Positions 4,455 to 51,301 of a stretch of DNA of 64,000 nt are shown here, piece by piece. Made by a program: the position numbers and the translations under genes. Under the pieces are notes generated by a model that saw nothing but the letters and a program-made list of their open reading frames with translations, made no database searches and was not told where the DNA came from. The stretch is from a virus, in IMG/VR virus record IMGVR_UViG_3300049048_000052, positions 86,643-150,642 of that record. The stretch is one strand, 5' to 3'. Numbering within the stretch: the stretch's first letter is position 1; each line of letters begins with the position of its first letter.

Positions 4455-5300
4455 ATGACGGCCTGGTGTAAGACGGATAAGGGCATTACTGCTTCCTATA
4501 GAGGCAAGATATATAACATATTAAGTACTAATCCTAAATATGGTGAGATCATTGAGCTCATTAAGGCTAAGGAATGGGAGAGTGCTATTGAGTTACTTGA
4601 TGTAGCTCAGACAATCGAAAAGAAATCTGATGGTGCCTTTAGTGTTAGGGATGGTCTAGTGTATGTTAAGGGTGAGGATCGTCCTCTACCCGAGGTGTTA
4701 TCTAAGAGAGTCCTAGACTTCTATGAGGAGGGCCTAGATTATGCACCGTTACTTAAGTTCTGGGGCCATGTTAAGTTGAACCCCAGTAACCGGGCAGTGG
4801 ATAGATTATATGAATGTCTAGAACATAATCATCATCCTATTACTGAGGACGGCAACTTCCTTGCATATAAGAAGGTAAGGCAGAGTCCTGATGGTAACCT
4901 ATATGATATTTATACCTATAGGAATGATAAGGGGACCTTCCTTAATAATGTAGGTCTTACTGTAACTATACAAAGGAATCTAGTTGATGAGAATATCGAC
5001 CAAACATGCTCTTATGGGTTGCATGTGGCTTCTTATGATTATGCTGCTAGAGTTTATGGTTCTGATAGCGATGTGCTCCTAGAGGTCGAGGTTAATCCTA
5101 AGGACGTAGTTGCTATTCCTCGTGACTATAATAACCAAAAGATGAGAGTCTGTGCCTATAAGGTATTAGCTATCAGTGCTGGTTATGAGAGGACTGAGGC
5201 ATACGTTGGGTATGATCAGTACGAGGATGAGGACGAAGAGGAAGCCTATTGGGATGACCATTACAGCTATCTCTATGGGGACTATGATGAAGAATACTAA
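4455..5300 (+). CDS. hypothetical protein with acidic C-terminal tail
   Basis: 281-aa ORF preceded by GGTATATAAAC next to the ATG; C-terminus is a DEDEEEAYWDD...DYDEEY acidic tail. Confidence 0.55.
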   Translation: MTAWCKTDKGITASYRGKIYNILSTNPKYGEIIELIKAKEWESAIELLDVAQTIEKKSDGAFSVRDGLVYVKGEDRPLPEVLSKRVLDFYEEGLDYAPLLKFWGHVKLNPSNRAVDRLYECLEHNHHPITEDGNFLAYKKVRQSPDGNLYDIYTYRNDKGTFLNNVGLTVTIQRNLVDENIDQTCSYGLHVASYDYAARVYGSDSDVLLEVEVNPKDVVAIPRDYNNQKMRVCAYKVLAISAGYERTEAYVGYDQYEDEDEEEAYWDDHYSYLYGDYDEEY

Positions 5301-8910: not shown

Positions 8911-9657
8911 ATGAATAAGCCACTATGGTTACACGCTCTCATAGCCCAGATAACTGATACTAAGAAGAGAGCGGAGGGCATCAAGAAGTCCGTATATCAG
9001 AAGTTACAGAAGGCTACTCTCTTCGTAGCTACACTAAAGGAGTACACCCCATTAGTAGAGGGAGGTATACAGTACACATCTGAGGGTACATCAATCGTAC
9101 CTGAATCAGTACCTCTACTATTGGATGAGTTCAATGAGGCTGTCTCCAAACTATTAAATGAGATGGCTACCCAGGATTGGGGCAATACAAAGGCTAAGGC
9201 CGATGTTATTATTGATGATATAGTTATTGTTAAGGATGCACCTGTAACATTCCTAATGGCGTTACAGAGTCAGCTAATTGATTATAGAACTTTGTTTGAT
9301 CATGTACCCACTCTAAGTCCCGTGGACAAGTGGGAATATAATGCAGGTCAAATGGTATGGAGCACACCAGCTACCATTACTAATAAGGAACAAGTAATTA
9401 AGGAGTGGGTACCTATCTTCCAACCTACAGAGCACCACCCAGGTGAGGCCAAGGAAGTATCTAGGACAAAGCTAGAGGGTACATGGGAGAGCCGTAAGTT
9501 TAGTACTGCACTACTCCCTTCCCACAGGAAAGAATTGCTACAGAGGGTTGATAGACTAATTGAGGCGGTAAAGGTGGCACGTGAGGAGGCCAACCGTATT
9601 CAAGTAGAACCCAAGGATGTAGCTACAAGTATCATTGGGTACCTAATGGGTGCCTGA
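8911..9657 (+). CDS. hypothetical protein
   Basis: 248-aa ORF after a 340-nt non-coding region. Confidence 0.5.
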   Translation: MNKPLWLHALIAQITDTKKRAEGIKKSVYQKLQKATLFVATLKEYTPLVEGGIQYTSEGTSIVPESVPLLLDEFNEAVSKLLNEMATQDWGNTKAKADVIIDDIVIVKDAPVTFLMALQSQLIDYRTLFDHVPTLSPVDKWEYNAGQMVWSTPATITNKEQVIKEWVPIFQPTEHHPGEAKEVSRTKLEGTWESRKFSTALLPSHRKELLQRVDRLIEAVKVAREEANRIQVEPKDVATSIIGYLMGA

Positions 9658-9701
9658 TGGTAAACGGCGTAGGCTAAGGTTAAAGGTGTATAGGTAATAG
9701 T

Positions 9702-9758
9702 GTAGGTTCGAATCCTGCCCTTCCCATATATGGGAAGGTAGTCCAACTGGTAGAGACT
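9702..9758 (+). other. tRNA T-arm plus 3'-acceptor module followed 5 nt later by a complementary 5'-acceptor plus D-arm-like segment
   Basis: GTAGG/TTCGAAT/CCTGC then CCTTCCC A, TATAT, then GGGAAGG TA GTCC AACTGGTAGAGAC. Confidence 0.4.
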
Positions 9759-25475: not shown

Positions 25476-25754
25476 ATGAAACCAGGACCTAAGAAGGGTA
25501 GTAGTCAGAGTAAATCCCATGTTGCCAAGAGGGCCAAGGCTGTAAAAGGTAAGGCCAATGGTATGTTTAAGGATGGAAGACGTTCCTATCGTTCCATAGC
25601 GGGAGCTAGGAATAGCGATGGAAAAGTTGTGCATCACAAGGACGGTGATAGGACCAATAATTCAAGATCTAATCTAAAGGTCCTGAATGATGGTCCTAGT
25701 AGGCCAGGTAGGAAGACAACTAGTAAGCATGAAAGACTTACTAGACGTAAGTAG
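25476..25754 (+). CDS. small basic HNH (HNH_3-type) endonuclease-like protein
   Basis: 92 aa, K/R-rich, with VVHHKDGDRTNNSRSNLKVL (the HH.DG...NN...NL pattern of HNH_3-type homing endonucleases); ends exactly where a tRNA-like gene begins. Confidence 0.5.
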   Translation: MKPGPKKGSSQSKSHVAKRAKAVKGKANGMFKDGRRSYRSIAGARNSDGKVVHHKDGDRTNNSRSNLKVLNDGPSRPGRKTTSKHERLTRRK

Positions 25755-25924
25755 CCAGTGTAGCTTAAAAGGTAAAGCGTACCCCTCTCAGGGTATACCG
25801 AAAGGGTCCATAGGTAATAGGTGTAGTTGCAAGATTCTGTGAGAGTTATAAACTCCGTATTCGGCAGAGTCCCAGACTGCACAACTATACCTATGGATAT
25901 GAGGGTTCGATCCCCTTCACTGGC
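25754..25924 (+). tRNA. tRNA-like gene (anticodon-arm loop CTCTCA, Glu-like) with about 100-nt insertion after the anticodon arm
   Basis: 5' part 25754..25795: acceptor GCCAGTG, D-arm GCTT/AAAAGGTA/AAGC, stem TACCC/GGGTA. 3' part 25901..25924: T-arm GAGGG/TTCGATC/CCCTT, acceptor CACTGGC pairing 7/7. Confidence 0.35.
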
Positions 25925-26012
25925 GTTGACTAAGATAGAACAATGAGACATAAAGAAATGCCCCTCTATGTAAGACACATAAGAGGGGGTCCAATTAACT
26001 TAGGAGTAAATA

Positions 26013-32528: not shown

Positions 32529-33062
32529 ATGACAAAGCTTTTGGAGGCTGAAGCTCAGAGTATCATAACCTCGGGACATCCTGAGGACTTGAATAAGATG
32601 GCTAATGATCTATTGATCTTAGGTAGTACTCGATTGGAAGCTAGGGTGACAAGCAATCCTGAGCAGGTTAGGTTGAATATGATACTGCTGACCAGACAGT
32701 TAGCTGAGGCTAGAGGACGTAACCTCACAGCCATGGCTGTGTTAGGTCTATTCGCATGTGTAACACTCCTTATCCTAACCCTGATATATCTGGATGTACA
32801 GAAGAGTAGAGAGGACTATGATAGGTCCCTAGGTGCCTATGTGCTGCTTAGTGATGCCAATTGGCTTAAGTGTAAGATCGTGTACGATAGCACCACTAGG
32901 TGCCCCAGGTTACCTGATGAGTACATAGATGGTAGAGAGCCTAAGGTAGAGGACTACTTTGCGGGTTACCCACCTAAGTTAATCCAGGCAAAACAAGAAA
33001 TTGACAGTGCTGGTAAAACAAGGAGAGTTATTGATGAAGCCAGAAGAAGTGGCCGTCCTTGA
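32529..33062 (+). CDS. membrane protein
   Basis: 177 aa with a central TM helix (AVLGLFACVTLLILTLIYL). Confidence 0.4.
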   Translation: MTKLLEAEAQSIITSGHPEDLNKMANDLLILGSTRLEARVTSNPEQVRLNMILLTRQLAEARGRNLTAMAVLGLFACVTLLILTLIYLDVQKSREDYDRSLGAYVLLSDANWLKCKIVYDSTTRCPRLPDEYIDGREPKVEDYFAGYPPKLIQAKQEIDSAGKTRRVIDEARRSGRP

Positions 33063-33439
33063 GAGGGACCTCGCTGACGCCAAGTTACGTGTTAAGGAGA
33101 TAGAGGATAAGTTACAGGCCACTCAGCTTGTAAGGGCCTCTAGCCCAGAGTTTAAAGATAAGATGGTAGGACCTTACAATATAAGTAGGTTCCATCATGT
33201 TCTTGATCTATTGGTTGCAGGTAGGACCTGTGTCTTCCGGCATGAATCCTATGGGGAATATGTTGTATATACCCATAAGGAGACAGGTCATGTTAAGGTA
33301 AGGAAGACGAAGCCAGGTCCTAATGAAGGGATTATGGCTATCCAACCACCCTATCAACAGATCAATGACCAAACTATATTCAGATGTATGGTCCTGTCTG
33401 ATACGGGGGAGTGGTTTGTTTATCCTGAAGAGGATAAAG

Positions 33440-33787
33440 ATGAGAAGCCCTAGAGTAGCGCTCATTATCTTGCTACTAAGTCTAGTAGCAGCACCTGTTT
33501 TGGCAAGGAAACCTAATCCTAAGGGTGCAACCTTCTGTGAACTGGGTAGCGGCTACTGGACTGTAACTATAGTCTCGGGTATCTCTGGAGAGGAGATGTC
33601 AGTAGTTATCTCAGAGTTCCTTGCTAAGGAAGAGCTGATCACTTACTACACTTTTATGGGCCTATGCAATAATAGGACTCCTAGAGAGTTGTGGGTACAG
33701 GGCCTTAATGAGGCCAGTGCTAAGAAGGTCTACAACTTCCTGAGAAGGAGGTATCCCGATAGGGAAGTGTATAACATTAGACCATAA
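33440..33787 (+). CDS. secreted protein
   Basis: Internal ATG giving MRSPRVALIILLLSLVAAPVLA signal peptide; the longer listed ORF overlaps the previous gene. Confidence 0.4.
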   Translation: MRSPRVALIILLLSLVAAPVLARKPNPKGATFCELGSGYWTVTIVSGISGEEMSVVISEFLAKEELITYYTFMGLCNNRTPRELWVQGLNEASAKKVYNFLRRRYPDREVYNIRP

Positions 33788-33847
33788 ATCTTAGGGCGTA
33801 AGCCCTTATTCATTCCTCAGTGGCGCAGTGGATAGCGCACCCGCCTT

Positions 33848-34537
33848 TAGGATAGGAGCACTTCTAGGGGAAACCCTTAAAGTGAATGTGGTTAAATTCA
33901 GGGAAGACTAAGTAGATTATGATCAAACTCCCAATGACAGTTAGGACATAGAGGTACTAAGTTGTCTACAGAGTTAATGTCGTTAACTAAGGTTTCATGT
34001 GGAAAACTAGAGATGGCCTTTCTATGGGCTATTTCAACATGTTTGTTATACCCACAGTTAATACAACAAGACCAGTCGAGTTTTGCTGCTACAGCTCTAG
34101 CCCTTGCTCTAACTAAAGCATAGGCTGAGGACCTGTGATGTTTATTGTACATGGCTTCTTCTAAAGTGACATTTAGATTTAGTCCCTTACGATGAGATCC
34201 AAAGCAGGATTTACAGTAGGTTCTGGAGTTACTTATAGGAGTGGTGCATACCAAGCATTTATTCTCGGGTTTCCTCTTGGGGAAATTACGATTATTATGT
34301 GTAGCAGCACAACTCTTACTACAGAACTTAGGGTTAGTTGTTTCCTTATTACAGTTGAGACAATTCATAGTTTATATGTTAATCCTGAGCCAAGCTATTC
34401 GAAAGCCCTATTATATCATGGGTTCGAATAGAAGGTGCAGAGACTTAACAGCCACCACCTAAGGTCATAAGACTATGGTGAAGATAAAGTCCAGACTACA
34501 AACACTCTTGAGTGGCAGCTAAAGCTGTAGTAGGAGG
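33848..34537 (+). mobile_element. group I-like intron in the tRNA anticodon loop (between nt 34 and 35)
   Basis: TTCAGGGAAGACTAAG (33897..33912) and AAGATAAAGTCCAGACTACAA (34481..34501) resemble the group I R and S (P7) elements; terminal G before the 3' exon; about 210 nt of non-ORF sequence. Confidence 0.55.
33898..34368 (-). CDS. HNH homing endonuclease, encoded antisense inside the tRNA intron
   Basis: 156 aa; CINCGYNKHVEIAH...NLVPLCPNCH is a classic HNH motif, plus N-terminal CxxC pairs. Confidence 0.7.
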   Translation of the reverse strand: MNCLNCNKETTNPKFCSKSCAATHNNRNFPKRKPENKCLVCTTPISNSRTYCKSCFGSHRKGLNLNVTLEEAMYNKHHRSSAYALVRARARAVAAKLDWSCCINCGYNKHVEIAHRKAISSFPHETLVNDINSVDNLVPLCPNCHWEFDHNLLSLP

Positions 34538-34595
34538 CTAAGCGGTCGGTCGCAGGTTCGAATCCTGCCTGGGGAGTTTTAGTTAGGAGAAGATC

Positions 34596-35300
34596 ATGAG
34601 AATCATGACATATAAGGGCAGGCATGATTACTATGATCATGCTATGGCCTATGGTACTGATGAGAAGATTGTCTATGTTAGGCATCCTAAGGAGTTTCAC
34701 TTAGACCAGGTATTCAAGGGACGTGAGATACGTCAATATTATAGAGAGTTAAATCATTGGTTACCTCAGGATATAAGGGCCTCCGTCCTAGGTTTCTGTG
34801 GTACGTTGTACCCTGTCTATAGATACGAGGACACATACGGCATGTCTCCTGAGTACCTACTCGGTAAGCAGAAAGACGATGCTAGAAGAAGGTTAGAGGC
34901 TCTGCTTAATAAGCATGTCCTTTCTCCCTGGAATTATAAAGACGCCCTCCTCAAAGACAGGATGGTCAAAGAGATGATAGGTAAGGAACTGGGAATTGAG
35001 ACCTTTAATAAGTTAAGGTCTCCTTGTTTTCATATGCAGATGGAGTTTGGACGTACTGGTTTTCAGTATACCCTGACCACAAATCCTATACTTGTAGAGT
35101 TAGGGTTCCAGGTTATAGAAGAACCTATGTATTGTTATCAAGAGATCTATATGTTTATAGATAACCTTAATGCAAGTATAGGTCCCGTAGATGAGTCCAC
35201 TAAGTCCGATGATGTGATTGCAAAGTCTAAGGGTCATGATCCTAAGACATCCTTTAGAACTAATAGTCCTGGTAAGAAGGCCAGGAGGAGAAGTAAGTGA
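34596..35300 (+). CDS. hypothetical protein
   Basis: 234-aa ORF with TTAGGAGAAGATC ribosome-binding site. Confidence 0.5.
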   Translation: MRIMTYKGRHDYYDHAMAYGTDEKIVYVRHPKEFHLDQVFKGREIRQYYRELNHWLPQDIRASVLGFCGTLYPVYRYEDTYGMSPEYLLGKQKDDARRRLEALLNKHVLSPWNYKDALLKDRMVKEMIGKELGIETFNKLRSPCFHMQMEFGRTGFQYTLTTNPILVELGFQVIEEPMYCYQEIYMFIDNLNASIGPVDESTKSDDVIAKSKGHDPKTSFRTNSPGKKARRRSK

Positions 35301-35863
35301 GATATAGATTGAATACAGAGGGACCTCAGGGTGCTGCGGCTGCGAAGCTTGTAGCTATAGTCGTAGGATCTATTAGCACCTTTATGCTATTAGTGTCCTT
35401 TGCTTACCTATTATTTGGTACGCCCTCAGGGGCTGCTGTCCTAGGTTGCATACTGGGTCTGTTATTGGGAGCTGGGGGTATTGTCCTCTCGGCCATCGGA
35501 TTCATTATGGGTGCCGTAGCTCAGGATGAAGATTAAGTAGTTATTAGGAGTATAGAGAATGCGTAGACATAGCAATGATGATTTCGATTCCATGTTTAAT
35601 AGCATGGCCGATACCATATCCAAGGCCCAGAGGAGAGCTAAGAGAATCTTCCTCATTCTAGGCCTGATATCGGTAAGTGCCCTGTTAGGCTGCTTTTGGG
35701 CTCTGTTTATGGGTAACCTGAGCATGTCCGCAACTGTGGGGGCCTGTCTAGGCATCCTGATTTCAGCACCATTAAGCTGGGTAAGTCTAGCAACTGTATT
35801 GGCTTCGAGTATTAAGGCATAGTTTGACTAACATGGGTATATAGAAGTATACTCATGTAACAT

Positions 35864-35944
35864 GGGTGGATGACCGAGAGGCCGATGGTGCCTGACTGTA
35901 AATCAGGTCGTAACAGCGCGCTGGTTCGAATCCAGCTCCACCCA
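35864..35944 (+). tRNA. tRNA-Tyr (GUA)
   Basis: Acceptor GGGTGGA/TCCACCC, class II D-arm CCGAGAGGCCGATGG, anticodon stem-loop CCTGA CTGTAAA TCAGG, long variable arm, T-arm GCTGG/TTCGAAT/CCAGC. Confidence 0.7.
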
Positions 35945-35953
35945 TTTCAATAA

Positions 35954-36036
35954 CGGCAGGCTAGGCGAGTTGGTGATCGCTGGGGAGTGTACAACCCTAC
36001 CTTATAGGAACGTTGGTTCGAATCCAACCCTGCTGA
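35954..36036 (+). tRNA. tRNA (long-variable-arm type, anticodon unresolved)
   Basis: Acceptor CGGCAGG/CCTGCTG, T-arm GTTGG/TTCGAAT/CCAAC, D-loop AGTTGGTGAT; anticodon arm could not be folded by hand. Confidence 0.4.
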
Positions 36037-43252: not shown

Positions 43253-43311
43253 CTGGTTCTATAAAATAGAACTGGTTGAGGGGGAGTGGTGTAATGGTAG
43301 CCACGCAGGTC

Positions 43312-43857
43312 TTAACTCATTGGAGTTAGTTGGTGTATTAGTTTATAAGCGTTCTTAACTAGATCTCTAGAGAGCATCTTACCACCAGATATCAATTTTA
43401 TAATTGGGTTCTTGCGTGAGTGGTCTAACTGAAATCTAGCTTGAGGATATAAGTCCAGGAAGGATGTGGCAGTATCTTTATTAGAGGCAGCTATTTCTAT
43501 CCTATAAGTCTTAACTTTATAGACTTGTACTAAAAGTTGCTTTATCAGATCTATTAAAGTAGGATCCTGGTTGCAGAAGTAAACATGATTTGTTTTATCT
43601 GTATGCCAGCCCTCACATAAATAGGCCGTATGGGCAGCAATGGAAAGAGGTGTTAGGAGTAAATCATCTGTAGGGGAGATATAGTTCTTCCTAGCTAGAA
43701 AGTTATACTCTGAGGCAGATCTCATTGGTATATGGTACTTCCTTAAGTAAGACCTAATAGTCTTATGGTTACAGGCTAGTAACTGACCTATCTGATAGGG
43801 ATTAAGTTCCTGAGTCAGGTATAGATCCTCAAGTACCTCTTTATTAATTAACTTCAT
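43312..43857 (-). CDS. intron-encoded protein, antisense (HTH plus LAGLIDADG-like, putative homing endonuclease)
   Basis: 181 aa inside the second tRNA intron; N-terminal helix-turn-helix-like segment and AYLCEGWHTDK, loosely resembling a single LAGLIDADG motif. Confidence 0.5.
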   Translation of the reverse strand: MKLINKEVLEDLYLTQELNPYQIGQLLACNHKTIRSYLRKYHIPMRSASEYNFLARKNYISPTDDLLLTPLSIAAHTAYLCEGWHTDKTNHVYFCNQDPTLIDLIKQLLVQVYKVKTYRIEIAASNKDTATSFLDLYPQARFQLDHSRKNPIIKLISGGKMLSRDLVKNAYKLIHQLTPMS

Positions 43858-44111
43858 AATCCTGAGCCTTCATGTAGAAATACATGTTGTGAACGAAGCT
43901 ATATGCGGGAAACGCTTAAAGCCTACAACACTATATGTCTACCAAGATATAAGTAACAGTTTGTAGGATGTAACAATAGCCAATCCGCAGGGAAGATACC
44001 TAGGTATCCCCTCAGAGACTAAACGCTTTGCACCTTAACGTAGAGACGAAGGTGATGATATAGTCCAGACTACAACAGCTTACGCTGGCCTATGAAAGTA
44101 GGAGTAGTAAG
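43314..44111 (+). mobile_element. group I-like intron in the tRNA-Leu anticodon loop (between nt 34 and 35)
   Basis: TCAGAGACTAAACGC (44012..44026) resembles R; GATGATATAGTCCAGACTACAACAGC (44054..44079) resembles S; terminal G; near-identical S region to the first intron. Confidence 0.55.
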
Positions 44112-44266
44112 AGGAACCTGTGCCGCAAGGCGTGAGAGTTCGAATCTCTCCTCCCCCATTTACAGTAGTGAGCACACGGTATGATGTAGGGTTCCCCCTA
44201 CTTGTACTAAGGCTAATACCTTTGCTATATTCACTACTGTAAACATATTGATTGTTTCTAATAATT

Positions 44267-45282: not shown

Positions 45283-45630
45283 ATGGAAATGGATATATTT
45301 AGCCCCTCAAGACTCGTCTGTATTCACTATGGAAATAATGCTATAGATGAGATAATGGATGGTAGAGCTGAGGAAGCCCTAGATAAACTAGAGAAGGCTC
45401 GTGAGGATGATATGTTCGATATGGAGCATTATCAATCTATACTGCTCTATGTGGGTGCATGCCTTAAACAAGAGAGCATGGGCCATTATATACAATTCCT
45501 ATTGACTATCTTTGATGAAGATGATATTACTAGTATTAACACCGCAGATTCTAAGGTCAATGGTGTCCTAGCGGAAGCGGCAGCAATCCATAGCGGGGAT
45601 GGAGCAACGGGAGGCTCGATGGTCTCATAA
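45283..45630 (+). CDS. hypothetical protein
   Basis: 115 aa, preceded by a 14-bp-stem hairpin. Confidence 0.4.
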   Translation: MEMDIFSPSRLVCIHYGNNAIDEIMDGRAEEALDKLEKAREDDMFDMEHYQSILLYVGACLKQESMGHYIQFLLTIFDEDDITSINTADSKVNGVLAEAAAIHSGDGATGGSMVS

Positions 45631-45666
45631 GCCATACATCGCTGAGTTCAATTCTCAGCCCCGACA
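45593..45666 (+). tRNA. tRNA-like (anticodon CAU) with imperfect acceptor stem
   Basis: D-arm GAGC/AACGGGAG/GCTC, anticodon stem-loop ATGGT CTCATAA GCCAT, T-arm CTGAG/TTCAATT/CTCAG. The acceptor pairs only 5/7 and the loop overlaps the TAA stop of CDS 45283..45630. Confidence 0.35.
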
Positions 45667-45898
45667 TTGTCAGTTTACCTGTCCTGACGTTGTGAAAAGA
45701 TAGGTGTAGGTCATAGGCCTAACTAGCAAGAATTGAGTTCGAATCTCAACAGGTCCATTTCGAGGGCCTGACTTGGTAATCGATTGTTAGCATGAGGAAC
45801 TATGACTGAAGGTGTGTACAACCAAAGTACAGAACAACAAGTGCAACCAATAACATTGTACCCTTCTCAAGGGTAAGTTCTATAGTAGTGTAATCTAC

Positions 45899-46663
45899 TC
45901 AGGCGTTTAGTATACTAAACGCCTGCTCTTTTTTACGCATACAGTAGGGACCACCTAAGTTATATAACCTAAATATAAAAGTCTTAAGGATTTTACCTTG
46001 AAAGGAGAAACCGTACTGATTATTCCAGTTGGGATTCTTACTTTGCAAGTCCCTCATATGTACATTAAGGGATATATCTAGTAGTTTGTTGAGCCTAGAG
46101 GCTAGAGTATACATAAAAGACTTTGAGCATCCATAGGCTGTAAGTCTACGGGAGGACCAACACCCGTCAGAGTCTAGATATCCTCTAATGAAATCTAACT
46201 CGTAGACGCTGTCTATAAGAGGCTCAGGGTAAATCATAGTCTTGGACTTATTACTTTCTAACTTTAGGATAGTAGTTAGATCTCTATGTAGACTAGTGGA
46301 ACATATAGCGAGCTGAAGACAGTTAGAAGCTATATTCCTTATTTTATAATCGGTATTGAGGTTAGATTGTATCTGTTCTAGAATATCCCTGTCCGAGGTA
46401 GTAAATACTATCTGACATCCATTTCTATGTAAGTGACCATCCCCATACAATACACCTAACATCCAAGCTTTAAAGGTGTCCATAGGGAACAATTTATAGT
46501 TCTTAAGCTTAGATAATGGCTTATAGGACATTGCCCCGGAGCTCTGCAGGACTTTGTATATACAATAAGAGGATAGCCCTAATTTAGAACTAATATTTGT
46601 AACAGACTGACCCTCCTTATACATAGTTATAATAGGCGTTGGGTTAATATGAGTAGATTTCAT
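45899..46663 (-). CDS. LAGLIDADG homing endonuclease (two-motif type)
   Basis: WMLGVLYGDGHL and FIRGYLDSDGCW are the two LAGLIDADG motifs; N-terminal HTH-like segment. Confidence 0.7.
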   Translation of the reverse strand: MKSTHINPTPIITMYKEGQSVTNISSKLGLSSYCIYKVLQSSGAMSYKPLSKLKNYKLFPMDTFKAWMLGVLYGDGHLHRNGCQIVFTTSDRDILEQIQSNLNTDYKIRNIASNCLQLAICSTSLHRDLTTILKLESNKSKTMIYPEPLIDSVYELDFIRGYLDSDGCWSSRRLTAYGCSKSFMYTLASRLNKLLDISLNVHMRDLQSKNPNWNNQYGFSFQGKILKTFIFRLYNLGGPYCMRKKEQAFSILNA

Positions 46664-47578: not shown

Positions 47579-47998
47579 ATGAGTCTTAGTCAGCAAGTAA
47601 AAGATTTCTTAAGTGTGGCCCCAGCTAGCTGGATTCCTCCAAGGAAACTTATCACTACTAAGTTGAGAGAGCCTATCAAGGGATGTCCTCAACTGAATGT
47701 TTACCCCCTGAACCAAGTACTAGAAATTAGCATGGATGGGGCACCCTTCTATCAACCCAATACTATATGTAGACTAACGGATTCAGATTTCCAGTTCACT
47801 ATGGTCTACGTTCCAGGAAGGGGTCCCATAGAAGTCTATGTGATTAAAGATCAGAGTACTGCCTATGTGTTTGAGGATCAGGTAGAGGCCTTTGCATTCC
47901 TCTACACTATTAAGCCCTACGAGCTAACTCAACTGGACGGAGATCCAACCTATGAGTGGGCACAGTTCAGATCTCACCTAGCCCCAGTACCCGCTTGA
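47579..47998 (+). CDS. hypothetical protein
   Basis: 139-aa ORF followed by a perfect 22-nt palindrome. Confidence 0.45.
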   Translation: MSLSQQVKDFLSVAPASWIPPRKLITTKLREPIKGCPQLNVYPLNQVLEISMDGAPFYQPNTICRLTDSDFQFTMVYVPGRGPIEVYVIKDQSTAYVFEDQVEAFAFLYTIKPYELTQLDGDPTYEWAQFRSHLAPVPA

Positions 47999-48033
47999 TA
48001 TAATTATGACTACAGTATATACTGTAGTCACTG

Positions 48034-48105: not shown

Positions 48106-48419
48106 TTTATATGTGCCTATCTTATTCAGTCGGCATATGTAACTATATAAATATCTCCATCAAACTGATAGAGTCATAGAGCCTATATGGTCTCTGACTA
48201 AGAGCTGATACGGATGGAATATTGGGGGATAGGTACTCCCGATGAGGGCCCCAGCTCTCAACACAAATATCAGCTCTCCTAGCAACTAACTGGCTTATGC
48301 TAACCCTTAATCAGGTAATCATATATTGGTTCAACTCCAATAGTTGCTTTTCCCAGTCGCATAACTTGCGTTCCCAACTGGGATTCTTAGCAATGGTTGG
48401 CTTAGTCCAATCATTTCTT

Positions 48420-48492
48420 GAGGCTGTCGTCTAAAATGGTAGGACTCCCCAAGTTAGTGGGGCAGATGTAGGTTCAAATCCTACCGGCTTCA
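48420..48492 (+). tRNA. tRNA with non-canonical anticodon loop
   Basis: Acceptor GAGGCTG/CGGCTTC, D-arm GTCT/AAAATGGTA/GGAC, stem CCCCA/TGGGG enclosing a 6-nt loop AGTTAG (or 4-bp stem plus 8-nt loop), T-arm GTAGG/TTCAAAT/CCTAC. Confidence 0.45.
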
Positions 48493-48497
48493 TTTAT

Positions 48498-48955: not shown

Positions 48956-49513
48956 ATGACAAGTACAACGTCCTTAAGCCGCTTCCTAGAGTGGCTTAAG
49001 AGTCTGTTCTATAAGAAATCTAAGGGTGAAAAGAGCCATGTCAGGATTATTGAAGAAATTAAGAGTCCTATATCCAGGACTATTCGGATTAACAGGGATT
49101 ACCCAGGGGCAGTTGATACCTGGAAGTCCATACCAATGTATGAGTCAGCCTATGACTTTTATTGCCTCGTTGATAGAACGAAGCGGGAGGAAATGGGCCG
49201 AGATAACCTGTTCTTGCGAGCAGGCAATACCACTATACGAGTTAGAGCTGATCCAAGGAGTGGACTGGGAGGGGATATTAACTCTTCACATAGAATCACA
49301 ATCGTTGGAGTCTCAAGACTACCAATAGGTAAAGGTCAGTATCAAACTGAGGTCCTATATGTAGGCCTATTTAATCTAGTTAAGTCCTTCAATTCATATG
49401 ATAGTGTAGCTAAGGTCTTAGCTCATCGTATAGCTAAAAAGATGAGTGTTGTTATAGTTGATAATATGGATTGGTGTACATTTATAAATGATGAGAAGAA
49501 TAGGTTGATATAA
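48956..49513 (+). CDS. hypothetical protein
   Basis: 185-aa ORF overlapping the stop of 48675..48956. Confidence 0.45.
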   Translation: MTSTTSLSRFLEWLKSLFYKKSKGEKSHVRIIEEIKSPISRTIRINRDYPGAVDTWKSIPMYESAYDFYCLVDRTKREEMGRDNLFLRAGNTTIRVRADPRSGLGGDINSSHRITIVGVSRLPIGKGQYQTEVLYVGLFNLVKSFNSYDSVAKVLAHRIAKKMSVVIVDNMDWCTFINDEKNRLI

Positions 49514-49579
49514 TGATTCTCTATTAGTTACTTTAGGACCTCAGGGTGATTACCTTGGGGTCTTATCTTTAGGAGGGAT

Positions 49580-49950: not shown

Positions 49951-50196
49951 GGAGGAAAAGGATGATGCGGTTGTGTTGAGTATGGGGGATGTCACCTTTG
50001 TTCTCTTTAAGAATGCTAATGGAGAGGTAGTTGCCCTTCCAGTAGATGAGGATGATGAAGATGACATGCCCTTTGGGATTCAGATGCCCCAATGAACCTT
50101 GTAACGAATGGACCGACTGTGACTATAAGGATAGATTAATATATCTACCTGAGAAGCATGAGGACCCTAATGATTGGCAGGATGCCAGTTAAGCCT

Positions 50197-50276
50197 CCCC
50201 GCTACGTCCTAAGGTAGGACACCTGCCTTCTAAGCAGGCGCCTTGAGCATAACAGGTTCGATTCCTGTAGCGGGGG
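50197..50276 (+). tRNA. tRNA (anticodon UCU) with 13-nt variable arm
   Basis: Acceptor CCCCGCT/AGCGGGG 7/7, D-arm GTCC/TAAGGTA/GGAC, anticodon stem-loop CCTGC CTTCTAA GCAGG, variable arm CGCCTTGAGCATA, T-arm ACAGG/TTCGATT/CCTGT. Confidence 0.55.
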
Positions 50277-51301
50277 TTAATACATTTGGAGAAGAGTATG
50301 TCGGAAGTCTGGTTGGCTATAGGTATTACTATGTGGTTATGTGTAGGTATAGGAGCTATGTTCCTTAACCTCTTTAAGATTAGTATAAAAGAGTTTATGG
50401 GAGTGAAGACTGATGCGGTCCATCTTACGTTAATGTCTTTATCTATCATTGCTCTGGGCCCAATAGGTCTAGCCATTGTTATTTGGGGGTAATATGAAGG
50501 ATCCAAAACAGAATCCTGGTCAGGCCGCTGCTGCGGTCGCTATTGTTGTAGGCTTGATTGCAGGGGGCGCAGTTATAAGGGACGAGATCGTTAGGAACGT
50601 CAATACTCAGGAGCAAAAGCATGACCGATAAGAAAGAAGAGAAGGATACTGGTAAAGGTTCAAGTAATAAACCGATAACTAAGGAAAGCGATAAACCAAA
50701 CGGCGGATCACAATATATCGGCGGTATACCTGGCCTGGGGGATAAATGAAGTTAGTGTCTATTTGTCTAGGGTTCCTAGCAGTAGTTACGGGACTGTGTT
50801 TTATATCTATTCAATCCAACCTACCCTGCGATTCGTGGGTGATGGGGATGGCTATGACTTACCTATTATCATTGGGAGGTATATCCTTCCTCTTATACAC
50901 TGTTTGATTAATGAAGGGGCCTCAATTAAGGGGCCCATAAAAGGAGAAAGATGATTGGAACAATGTGGAGAAATAGAGTCAGTGGTATACCCCATTGGGT
51001 GGTAGGTCATATGATTATAAATCCTATAAGATTAGATACCCACACTAATACTCACGGTACGTGGATCATATTAGAACATAGGGCAAGTGGACCTAAGGAA
51101 CTATATGTTTCTGAGCATGAGCTATCTGAGCTCTATAATATGGAAGGCAATATATGATAATGGAATTCTGGATGCAGCCTGTTATACAGGAGTTTGCTAC
51201 TGTAATATTGCTTTCTATCGTGGCCCCTATATTGATATCATTGCTATTCTATTGGTTGTATAAGGATTAATTGATTGGTTACTTAGTAAGGAATCAATAT
51301 A

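Follow-up and report, generated by a model that had tools for sequence, protein, structure and literature searches.

How a phage tRNA gene can be interrupted by a ribozyme that itself carries an endonuclease gene on the opposite strand is the question raised by a locus of the IMG/VR record IMGVR_UViG_3300049048_000052, of which a 64,000-nt stretch of phage-like DNA was analysed (positions 86,643 to 150,642; hereafter the window, in which all coordinates are given unless another locus is named). Positions 33814-34575 are a tRNA-Arg(UCU) gene into whose anticodon, between nt 34 and 35, a group I intron of 690 nt is inserted (33848-34537, plus strand), and within this intron a gene for a putative HNH homing endonuclease of 156 aa lies antisense (33898-34368, minus strand). 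The explanation considered probable here is that of a composite mobile element residing in the phage tRNA array, in which a self-splicing intron is combined with an independently transcribed endonuclease directed against intron-less tRNA-Arg(UCU) genes.

Regarding the tRNA, the 5' exon (33814-33847, plus strand; positions 1-34, the last being U34 of the anticodon), delimited by sequence reading and ARAGORN, consists of the acceptor strand TCCTCAG, a D-arm GCGC/AGTGGATA/GCGC and the anticodon-stem strand CCCGC followed by CTT. The 3' exon (34538-34575, plus strand; C35 to A72), delimited by sequence reading and by ARAGORN on the spliced product, comprises CTAA, GCGGT, the variable region CGGTC, a T-arm GCAGG/TTCGAAT/CCTGC and the acceptor strand CTGGGGA. 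The discriminator is G34576 and CCA is not encoded. Reading the sequence also locates A20 in the D-loop AGUGGAUA and C35, which we take to be arginine identity elements, as in E. coli tRNA-Arg. When 33847 is joined to 34538 in silico, the exons read ...CCCGCCTTCTAAGCGG..., the anticodon loop becomes CU-UCU-AA and a 72-nt cloverleaf results, which ARAGORN calls tRNA-Arg(tct). The halves of a tRNA(UCU) gene recognised in the initial annotation thus hold, both in their coordinates and in the pairing of the acceptor strands at all 7/7 positions, one of which is a G-U wobble.

The split gene at 33814-34575 was not reported by ARAGORN in default mode nor by the Rfam tRNA model. In intron mode, ARAGORN recovers it at 33813-34577 with an intron of 690 nt, called as Ser(gct) with a junction 1 nt off, the slide being due to a TTT run. 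In the relatives of the intron, the intervening sequence starts with C and ends with ...AAG, which makes the junction CUU|CUAA unambiguous and therefore sets the anticodon as UCU and the insertion site as 34/35; the position is also fixed by the P1 and P10 pairings described below. Two other junctions were considered and ruled out, namely Ser(GCU), with which a 5-nt variable loop does not fit, and Lys(UUU), with which the intron would end in C, both disagreeing in addition with the unambiguous junction of the relatives. The insertion site is that of the tRNA-Leu(UAA) intron (PMC13011429), as had been proposed from the sequence with reference to cyanobacteria; this intron, cyanobacterial and plastid, is of the IC3 type.

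Since intron-mode ARAGORN yields false positives, such as a dubious tRNA-Phe(aaa) at 9159-9727, it could be argued that the HNH gene just happens to lie between two unrelated tRNA fragments and that the group I match is spurious. This possibility is negligible and effectively refuted: the two halves complete a single cloverleaf, the Rfam match has an E-value of about 1e-11, and in 13 other family members with complete exons the halves likewise pair across the intron with covariation, the anticodon stem that spans it covarying at 5/5 pairs in the tRNA-Arg(UCU) intron family.

The intron is matched by the Rfam group I model RF00028 at 33837-34513 over its full length (model positions 1-253), with 54.1 bits against a gathering score of 50 bits and an E-value of about 1e-11 to 1e-12. 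The alignment shows one large insertion, located between both strands of P5, and a low score is expected because of this insertion of approximately 460 nt. As initially annotated, the intervening sequence ends in a G, the omega-G34537 that precedes the 3' exon. Covariation was assessed on 11 related introns from which the ORF was excised before alignment, using RNAalifold together with explicit pair counting and adding the P7 pseudoknot. Standard pairs occupy 95.9% of the cells in these 11 introns, vs. 30-40% when the partners are slid by 1-3 columns, and compensatory changes are found in 28 of the 49 pairs, distributed over P2, P3, P5, P6, P7, P8, P9 and the anticodon stem across the intron. 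Both the ribozyme and the tRNA are therefore established by sequence, covariance model and covariation, and the intron is most likely a self-splicing group I ribozyme, as judged from its structure.

At the 5' splice site, the internal guide sequence UAGGAG (33853-33858) pairs through GAG with the exon CUU in P1 and through UAG with CUA of the 3' exon in P10. P1 associates 33845-33848 with 33855-33858, including the pairs C33845-G33858, U33846-A33857 and, at the splice site, U33847.G33856; in the RNAalifold alignment its columns (10-13 with 25-28) are invariant in 11/11 introns, as is the splice-site U.G. An alternative register of P1, with U33847.G33855 and a C.A mismatch, was rejected, its outer pairs being broken by the exon CACUU of the relative L089 and RNAalifold picking the other register. 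P10 was read from the sequence and pairs C34538, U34539 and A34540 with G33855, A33854 and U33853, respectively. P2 is a hairpin (33859-33884) capped by a GAAA tetraloop (33870-33873), with compensatory changes in 7/9 pairs. The 5' strand of P3, GUGGUU (33888-33893), pairs with 34450-34455, all 6/6 pairs being compensatory and 100% of the cells paired. According to pair counts, the 5' strands of P4 (33898-33903) and P5 (33907-33908) pair with 34383-34388 and 34378-34379, respectively. They are followed by a P5a extension (33912-33921 with 34366-34375) deduced from sequence reading and from comparison with L157, a relative without endonuclease gene.

Further downstream, an extended P6/P6a/P6b hairpin (34389-34436) is longer than in L157; its basal P6 pairs (34389-34391 with 34434-34436) covary and its inner helices come from sequence reading. 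Element R (34437-34455), delimited with the Rfam alignment, comprises J6/7, the 5' strand of P7 (G34440, the bulged A34441 and GACU at 34442-34445) and the 3' strand of P3 (34450-34455). The sequence taken for an R-like element in the initial annotation (TCAGGGAAGACTAAG, 33898-33912) is really the 5' strand of P4/P5, the true R sequence, GCAGAGACTTAAC in DNA or GCAGAGACUUAAC in RNA, being placed at about 34437-34450 by the Rfam alignment. The S-like element proposed at the same time is, on the other hand, confirmed by that alignment at 34481-34492 (AAGATAAAGTCC, or AAGAUAAAGUCC), where it comprises J8/7 and the 3' strand of P7, AGUCC (34488-34492), in agreement with the pair counts. The P7 pairing (34440-34445 with 34488-34492) is backed by a compensatory GAUC/GAUC change in the relative L156. 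Between R and S, the P8 hairpin (34456-34480), supported by pair counts, bears an 11-nt tetraloop-receptor motif, CCUAAG...UAUGG, found by sequence reading, into which the L2 GAAA loop presumably docks, as that of IC3 introns would. A pair of P9 hairpins (34503-34514 and 34515-34528) is supported by covariation, the first covarying between the window and L157 and the second showing compensatory changes in 4/5 pairs. Among the traits expected of IC3 introns, the anticodon-loop site, the short P1, the GAAA of L2 and the P8 motif are seen; L9, expected to be a GNRA loop, is UAAA in the window and GAAA in the relatives.

The HNH gene (33898-34368, minus strand) is the sole long ORF inside this plus-strand intron, as initially annotated. 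Its product matches Pfam HNH_2 (PF13391) with 28.9 bits, above the cut-off of 21 bits, as well as phrog_1271 (PHROG 1271), annotated as HNH endonuclease, while a search against solved structures gave only weak HNH matches, the best being 5h0m (E = 0.005). The gene is intact and conserved: the 39/39 columns that are invariant in an alignment of 10 homologs are kept in the window protein, including conserved Cys, His and Asn residues, with C102, C105, H110, H115, N132, N136, C141, C144 and H145 all invariant and present.

A 444-nt loop (33922-34365), which codes for the HNH protein throughout, is closed by the P5a stem (GUAGAUUAUG with CAUAGUUUAU), the start codon being the complement of 34366-34368 within the P5a 3' strand. 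The 5' strands of P4 to P5a are complementary to the final 8 codons, stop included, the TGA complementing UCA in P4. In type-B relatives, the ORF extends through the complement of P3 and J2/3 into P2 and ends in a conserved tail, FPxQPxFT, which is presumably dictated by the ribozyme sequence.

It is reasonable that an antisense gene needs its own promoter, and the HNH gene is most likely transcribed from one, for which the sequence offers a candidate, a perfect extended -10 box, TGATATAAT (34410-34418, minus strand), located 42 nt upstream of the HNH ATG and in the terminal loop of P6b. The motif TGNTATAAT occurs in only 3 copies over both strands of the 64-kb window, the candidate box included. 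The P6 extension bearing the box is missing from the endonuclease-less L157, and in type-C relatives L6 is enlarged and bears a TATAAA box likewise situated at -42 to -46. The other two motifs are on the plus strand, at 47996-48004 and 49506-49514; the former precedes a tRNA-Thr (48033) by 29 nt, as well as a cluster of four tRNAs, and the phage likely does use promoters of this type.

This overlap of two genes on one duplex also brings up the possibility, compatible with a composite mobile element, of a sense/antisense regulatory module, in which transcription of one strand would limit the other, coupling endonuclease dosage to tRNA expression. The HNH mRNA being complementary to the intron and pre-tRNA over about 470 nt, such a module would act through duplex formation, RNase III cleavage or polymerase collision. 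Complementarity is forced by the arrangement, with the promoter candidate in a ribozyme loop and the ORF overlapping the P4-P5 core, and the antisense layout persists in divergent members; however, free-standing homologs work in either orientation and other phage tRNA introns carry sense ORFs, so that no sense/antisense coupling is required and the module is considered unlikely.

As for the relatives of the intron, loci found in viral contigs and metagenomes were given L-numbers, L086 and L096 being non-overlapping loci of one contig that were not merged. Scanning viral contigs with a pattern of the intron core (CAGAGACT...GGTGANGANANAGTCCAGAC) returned 24 loci. With few exceptions, these are tRNA genes whose anticodon loop is interrupted by an intron of 200-800 nt. 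Among the ORF-bearing introns, 9 distinct ones have a sense and 7 an antisense ORF. The sense ORFs scanned against Pfam belong to HNH_3 or PD-(D/E)XK families, and the antisense ones are found in tRNA-Leu(UAG), i.e. a second intron of the window, L077 and L084, and in tRNA-Arg(UCU), i.e. the present intron, L081, L089 and L091. The second intron of the window is 798 nt long and splits at 34/35 a tRNA-Leu(UAG) gene located at 43280-44158 (RF00028 66.8 bits, 43845-44086). A 181-aa antisense ORF (43312-43857, minus strand) fills it between the 5' splice site and the remaining ribozyme, its stop codon straddling the splice site; it has no Pfam match and a sole, N-terminal, helix-turn-helix-like PHROG match, and homologs about 50% identical are antisense in the same intron in L077 and L084.

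Further members of the tRNA-Arg(UCU) family were recovered from metagenomes with a pattern for the 5' part of the intron. A loose guide-sequence pattern had given 60 viral matches, mostly by chance, and a tighter one 14 metagenome matches, of which 12 are true family members, and 8 matches in cellular genomes, all by chance; an exact 26-nt exon pattern had zero matches in viral contigs. The family signature, searched as an exact pattern, was found in none of 185,579 bacterial and archaeal species represented by one genome each. At the gathering score, RF00028 misses AT-rich members of the family, L041 included, and a covariance model of the R-to-S core was therefore built from 29 phage tRNA introns.

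In total, an intact HNH ORF is found antisense in each of the 11 endonuclease-bearing tRNA-Arg(UCU) introns (9 of them non-identical), in P5 and between both strands of P4, the proteins sharing 37-60% amino-acid identity; the antisense layout is thus seen in about 10 other uncultured phage sequences. Three members, L149, L153 and L157, have introns of 218-288 nt without endonuclease gene. L157 is especially informative: its tRNA and intron are about 85% identical at the nucleotide level to the window on both sides of a 517-nt block (33915-34431), which has only 46 nt as counterpart in L157, and the neighbouring proteins are only 50-58% identical between the two. Such a pattern fits an endonuclease cassette, consisting of the ORF and its upstream region, that would have been recently gained or lost.

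Among deposited phage records, related split tRNAs were found only in unannotated huge-phage assemblies, and those are without endonuclease gene. In L175 (LR756508.1, 10756-13845; 484 kb) and L177 (LR756501.1; 735 kb), tRNA-Lys(UUU), tRNA-Arg(UCU) and tRNA-Leu(UAA) genes are split by introns of 175-205 nt with no endonuclease-length ORF; the tRNA-Lys intron of L175 and the tRNA-Leu intron of L177 show sequence similarity to the ribozyme core of the window.

The relatives of the HNH protein, 591 homologs in all, have a wider distribution. In 67 viral contigs bearing a homolog, nearly all copies are separate genes within phage tRNA arrays. When the R-to-S core model was run on all 71 homolog loci, the HNH gene was found inside an intron at L041 and adjacent to a core at L171, L173/L174 and L043/L045/L046, three further loci having a core away from the HNH gene; since intron cores occur at few of the 71 loci, most HNH homologs are free-standing. 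A UCU anticodon stem-loop, defined as CTTCTAA with a stem on both sides, is present within 160 nt of the ORF at 38/71 loci, against a background of 0.095 per window of that size, the linked tRNA being on the same strand at 13 loci and on the opposite strand at 25. At L043/L045/L046 (3560-4199, minus strand), a group I intron (RF00028 68.7 bits), itself preceded by a full-length tmRNA gene, is followed directly by the HNH homolog, which is antisense to it. Odd tRNA-like genes, on the minus strand, neighbour free-standing HNH homologs at L003 (tRNA-like gene at 2864-2939), L011 (2872-2946), L015, L016-L018, L025/L026 (2921-2997) and L032/L034 (3493-3567). Their anticodon loop is CUUCUAA, their anticodon stem is extended, their variable region is long and a normal D-arm is missing; they score 32-40 bits with the Rfam tRNA model, are missed by default ARAGORN, and might be endonuclease-resistant tRNA(UCU) variants.

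The linkage to UCU anticodon stem-loops, like the existence of the intron both with and without the endonuclease gene, is indirect evidence of homing. The HNH protein is most likely a homing endonuclease targeting intron-less tRNA-Arg(UCU) genes, but the intron could alternatively splice while merely sheltering a free-standing selfish gene in a tolerant loop, the endonuclease having some other target and not mobilising the intron. In keeping with such a passenger, most homologs are free-standing in tRNA arrays, some adjoin tRNAs for Ile, Gly, Thr and Met, and the window HNH groups with free-standing genes and not with the other intron-borne ones. This is nevertheless judged quite improbable in view of the strong and specific linkage to UCU anticodon stem-loops and of the intron-borne copies, 11/11 of which are in tRNA-Arg(UCU) introns and 0 in the intron of another tRNA.

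The same relatives suggest where the orientation came from. The window HNH is 60-62% identical to three metagenomic homologs (L171, L172 and L173). At L171 the gene is free-standing, about 60 nt downstream of an intron-containing tRNA-Arg(UCU) and on the same strand; at L172 it is convergent with an intact tRNA-Arg(UCU); at L173 it converges with a tRNA-Arg(UCU), overlapping its 3' exon, and the intron of this tRNA holds a sense LAGLIDADG gene. This last tRNA (L173/L174, 1985-2740, minus strand) is split at 34/35 by a different group I intron, two endonuclease families therefore competing around one tRNA gene. Identity to the other intron-borne HNH proteins is only 37-46%, and a neighbour-joining tree, computed without support values, places the window HNH among free-standing genes; because of this identity and placement, at least two moves between free-standing and intron-borne states would have taken place, or else a resident gene would have been replaced by recombination between homologs. 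A convergent free-standing ancestor is the probable source of the antisense orientation, as a convergent neighbour slipping into the intron would thereby come to lie antisense in it. This proposed origin matches the published path from free-standing endonuclease to composite intron, i.e. collaborative homing followed by invasion by the endonuclease gene (PMC3984707, PMC2790892).

Taken as a composite mobile element, the locus would function as follows. Transcription of the plus strand would give a pre-tRNA-Arg(UCU) with the 690-nt IC3-like intron between U34 and C35. The intron is expected from its structure to fold into P1-P10, the anticodon stem holding the exons, and two guanosine-dependent transesterifications would excise it and restore the loop CU-UCU-AA. 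On the other strand, the HNH gene in the P5a loop would be transcribed from its own promoter, with the putative -10 box in the enlarged P6 loop. As suggested by the linkage to tRNA(UCU) genes, the enzyme would nick or cut the intron-less tRNA-Arg(UCU) genes of co-infecting relatives, and repair would copy the intron together with the endonuclease gene into the cut allele. The antisense layout would be a historical trace of a free-standing cassette beside tRNA(UCU), more often on the opposite strand, that moved or was swapped into the intron uninverted.

Several observations weigh against this proposal. The anticodon-stem pair 27-43 is a C-U mismatch. L9, in the second P9 hairpin, is UAAA in the window and GAAA in 10/10 relatives, which could weaken a tertiary contact. 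A sigma-70 scan in which a -35 box was required along with the -10 box found no promoter upstream of the HNH ORF, and some 15 nt separate a Shine-Dalgarno-like AGGA from the ATG. Genomic linkage is the single kind of evidence from which the cleavage target is deduced, and the tree bearing on the origin of the gene has no support values. Finally, a second tRNA with a UCU anticodon, of 82 nt with a 13-nt variable region, is encoded at 50196-50277, may be another Arg isoacceptor and could make the split gene dispensable; its conserved counterpart in L157 (about 4979-5061) lies immediately downstream of the intron-containing tRNA-Arg(UCU).

Together with an RF00028 score barely above the cut-off, the UAAA loop, the mismatch and the second UCU tRNA would also suit a decaying element, in which the intron and/or the endonuclease is inactive and the split gene is a pseudogene covered by the tRNA at 50196-50277. 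Such decay is most improbable, as the core helices and junction motifs are all intact, the changes with respect to L157 are compensatory and not disruptive, the ORF is uninterrupted with every invariant residue kept, and the modest Rfam score is the one anticipated for an intron with so large an insertion. A composite mobile element is thus retained as the probable explanation.

Compared with known systems, the window intron is like the IC3 introns of tRNA-Leu(UAA) and of Azoarcus tRNA-Ile in being a compact anticodon-loop ribozyme, with a P1 of 3 exon base pairs, an anticodon stem that holds the exons, a GAAA loop in L2 and an 11-nt receptor in P8. It differs from these bacterial introns by its phage host, its tRNA-Arg(UCU), the 471-nt antisense gene in P5 and the UAAA of L9. 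The core AAAUUC...GAGCCAAG...GUGCAGAGACU...CCUAAGG...UAUGG presumably comes close to that of Azoarcus, a resemblance to be taken only as a lead.

Endonuclease genes are rare in bacterial tRNA introns, with only 12/333 in a survey of complete bacterial genomes, the text of which does not discuss ORF orientation (PMC13011429). The cases described include I-SspI-type PD-(D/E)XK enzymes in tRNA-fMet and PD-(D/E)XK enzymes in the tRNA-Arg(UCU) of Bacteroidota and Campylobacterota (PMC13011429). As in the window, the homing-endonuclease gene is internal to a group I intron of an anticodon loop, tRNA-Arg(UCU) being a known host, whereas the window enzyme is of the HNH_2 type, antisense and in a phage. 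While the initial annotation was right about the antisense orientation, which it considered unusual, this layout has precedents in nuclear rDNA introns and is recurrent in phage tRNA introns. In the nuclear rDNA group I intron Dir.S956-2 of Didymium, the I-DirII gene is antisense and has its own Pol II promoter (PMC3679873, PMC3073962). As in the window, the endonuclease is encoded on the strand opposite the ribozyme, within a peripheral element, and needs its own promoter; on the contrary, the setting is a eukaryotic nucleolar rDNA, with a Pol II promoter, a spliceosomal intron, polyadenylation and another enzyme type, and the resemblance is regarded as an analogy of layout only, without homology.

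Collaborative homing is exemplified by F-CphI and the psbA intron of cyanophage S-PM2, and by T4 mobE and I-TevIII (PMC3984707, PMC2790892). As in the present HNH family, a free-standing endonuclease is tied to a gene hosting an endonuclease-less intron, L171, L172 and L173 being such intermediate states; in the window, however, the endonuclease gene is already inside the intron and the host gene is a tRNA instead of a protein-coding gene. T4 SegB is a free-standing endonuclease of a phage tRNA region (PMC2988022), which resembles the window HNH in its location in a phage tRNA array and its presumed tRNA-region DNA target but is a GIY-YIG enzyme and not intron-borne, the window HNH_2 enzyme being linked specifically to tRNA(UCU).

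According to a 2014 review, protein-coding genes harboured every phage group I intron then known, although phage tRNA genes are numerous (PMC3984707), and a 2018 preprint on Lak megaphages mentioned "enigmatic" tRNA introns, said to be unreported in phages before (10.1101/356790). The literature searched, a limited library whose silence is no proof of absence, describes no phage tRNA with a group I intron bearing an antisense endonuclease gene, nor was an endonuclease gene found reported in antisense for bacterial or phage group I introns in general.

Besides the split gene, the window encodes at least 14 tRNA genes, a class II ribonucleotide reductase and a PHROG 1735 protein 42% identical to Klebsiella and Proteus phage proteins. 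When 33000-35500 was compared by megablast with 50,697 deposited phage records, no match was obtained, and the phage is distantly related to known phages. Among the 50 ORFs that reach 140 aa, 45 are on the plus strand, and 3/5 of the minus-strand ones are endonuclease-like, namely the HNH gene, the 181-aa ORF of the tRNA-Leu(UAG) intron and a LAGLIDADG gene (45899-46663). The latter was considered as intron-borne and rejected, as no group I core was found there with Rfam (E <0.1) or with the core model built here. It abuts a permuted two-piece tmRNA-like gene that follows a tRNA-Met (45591-46663 overall), for which ARAGORN gives the tmRNA tag ATNNIVPFSRVSSIVV and the Rfam model tmRNA_permuted 45 bits for a cut-off of 47.

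Other elements of the tRNA array deserve mention. A tRNA-model match of 38.7 bits extends over 172 nt (25754-25925), with an insertion of about 100 nt containing CAGAGTCCCAGACTGCACAAC, similar to the S/J8-7 region; too short for a full ribozyme, this insertion may be an intron remnant or another type of insertion. Two tandem copies of tRNA-Tyr(GTA) are 8 nt apart at 35863-36036, and at 48419-48493 ARAGORN reports a tRNA with an undetermined two-base anticodon, '(tt)'.

The antisense endonuclease makes the phage tRNA intron a variant, real but seldom described, of a mobile element already known. The split gene is missed by standard tRNA finders, which implies that phage tRNA repertoires are under-counted, and a covariation-supported group I family in phage tRNA-Arg(UCU), along with many other split phage tRNAs, fills a gap in the literature searched. 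A bolder view, which remains rather doubtful, would make phage tRNA genes a large and overlooked group I niche where tRNA-guarding endonucleases repeatedly become intron-borne, often antisense, forming a functional sense/antisense pair in which the intron or pre-tRNA brakes the endonuclease or endonuclease transcription throttles the tRNA. The HNH family occurs in four states at one target, i.e. free-standing by an intact tRNA, free-standing by an intron-containing tRNA, and with an intron lacking or carrying the endonuclease gene, which together provide a natural series for the rise of composite mobile introns. With an ORF overlapping the ribozyme core, the antisense HNH gene also offers a tractable model of two genes on one duplex, and the HNH enzymes might serve as new nucleases specific for sites in tRNA genes. 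The main interest lies in a recurrent layout, in a niche thought to be intron-free, with relatives that preserve stages of endonuclease capture.

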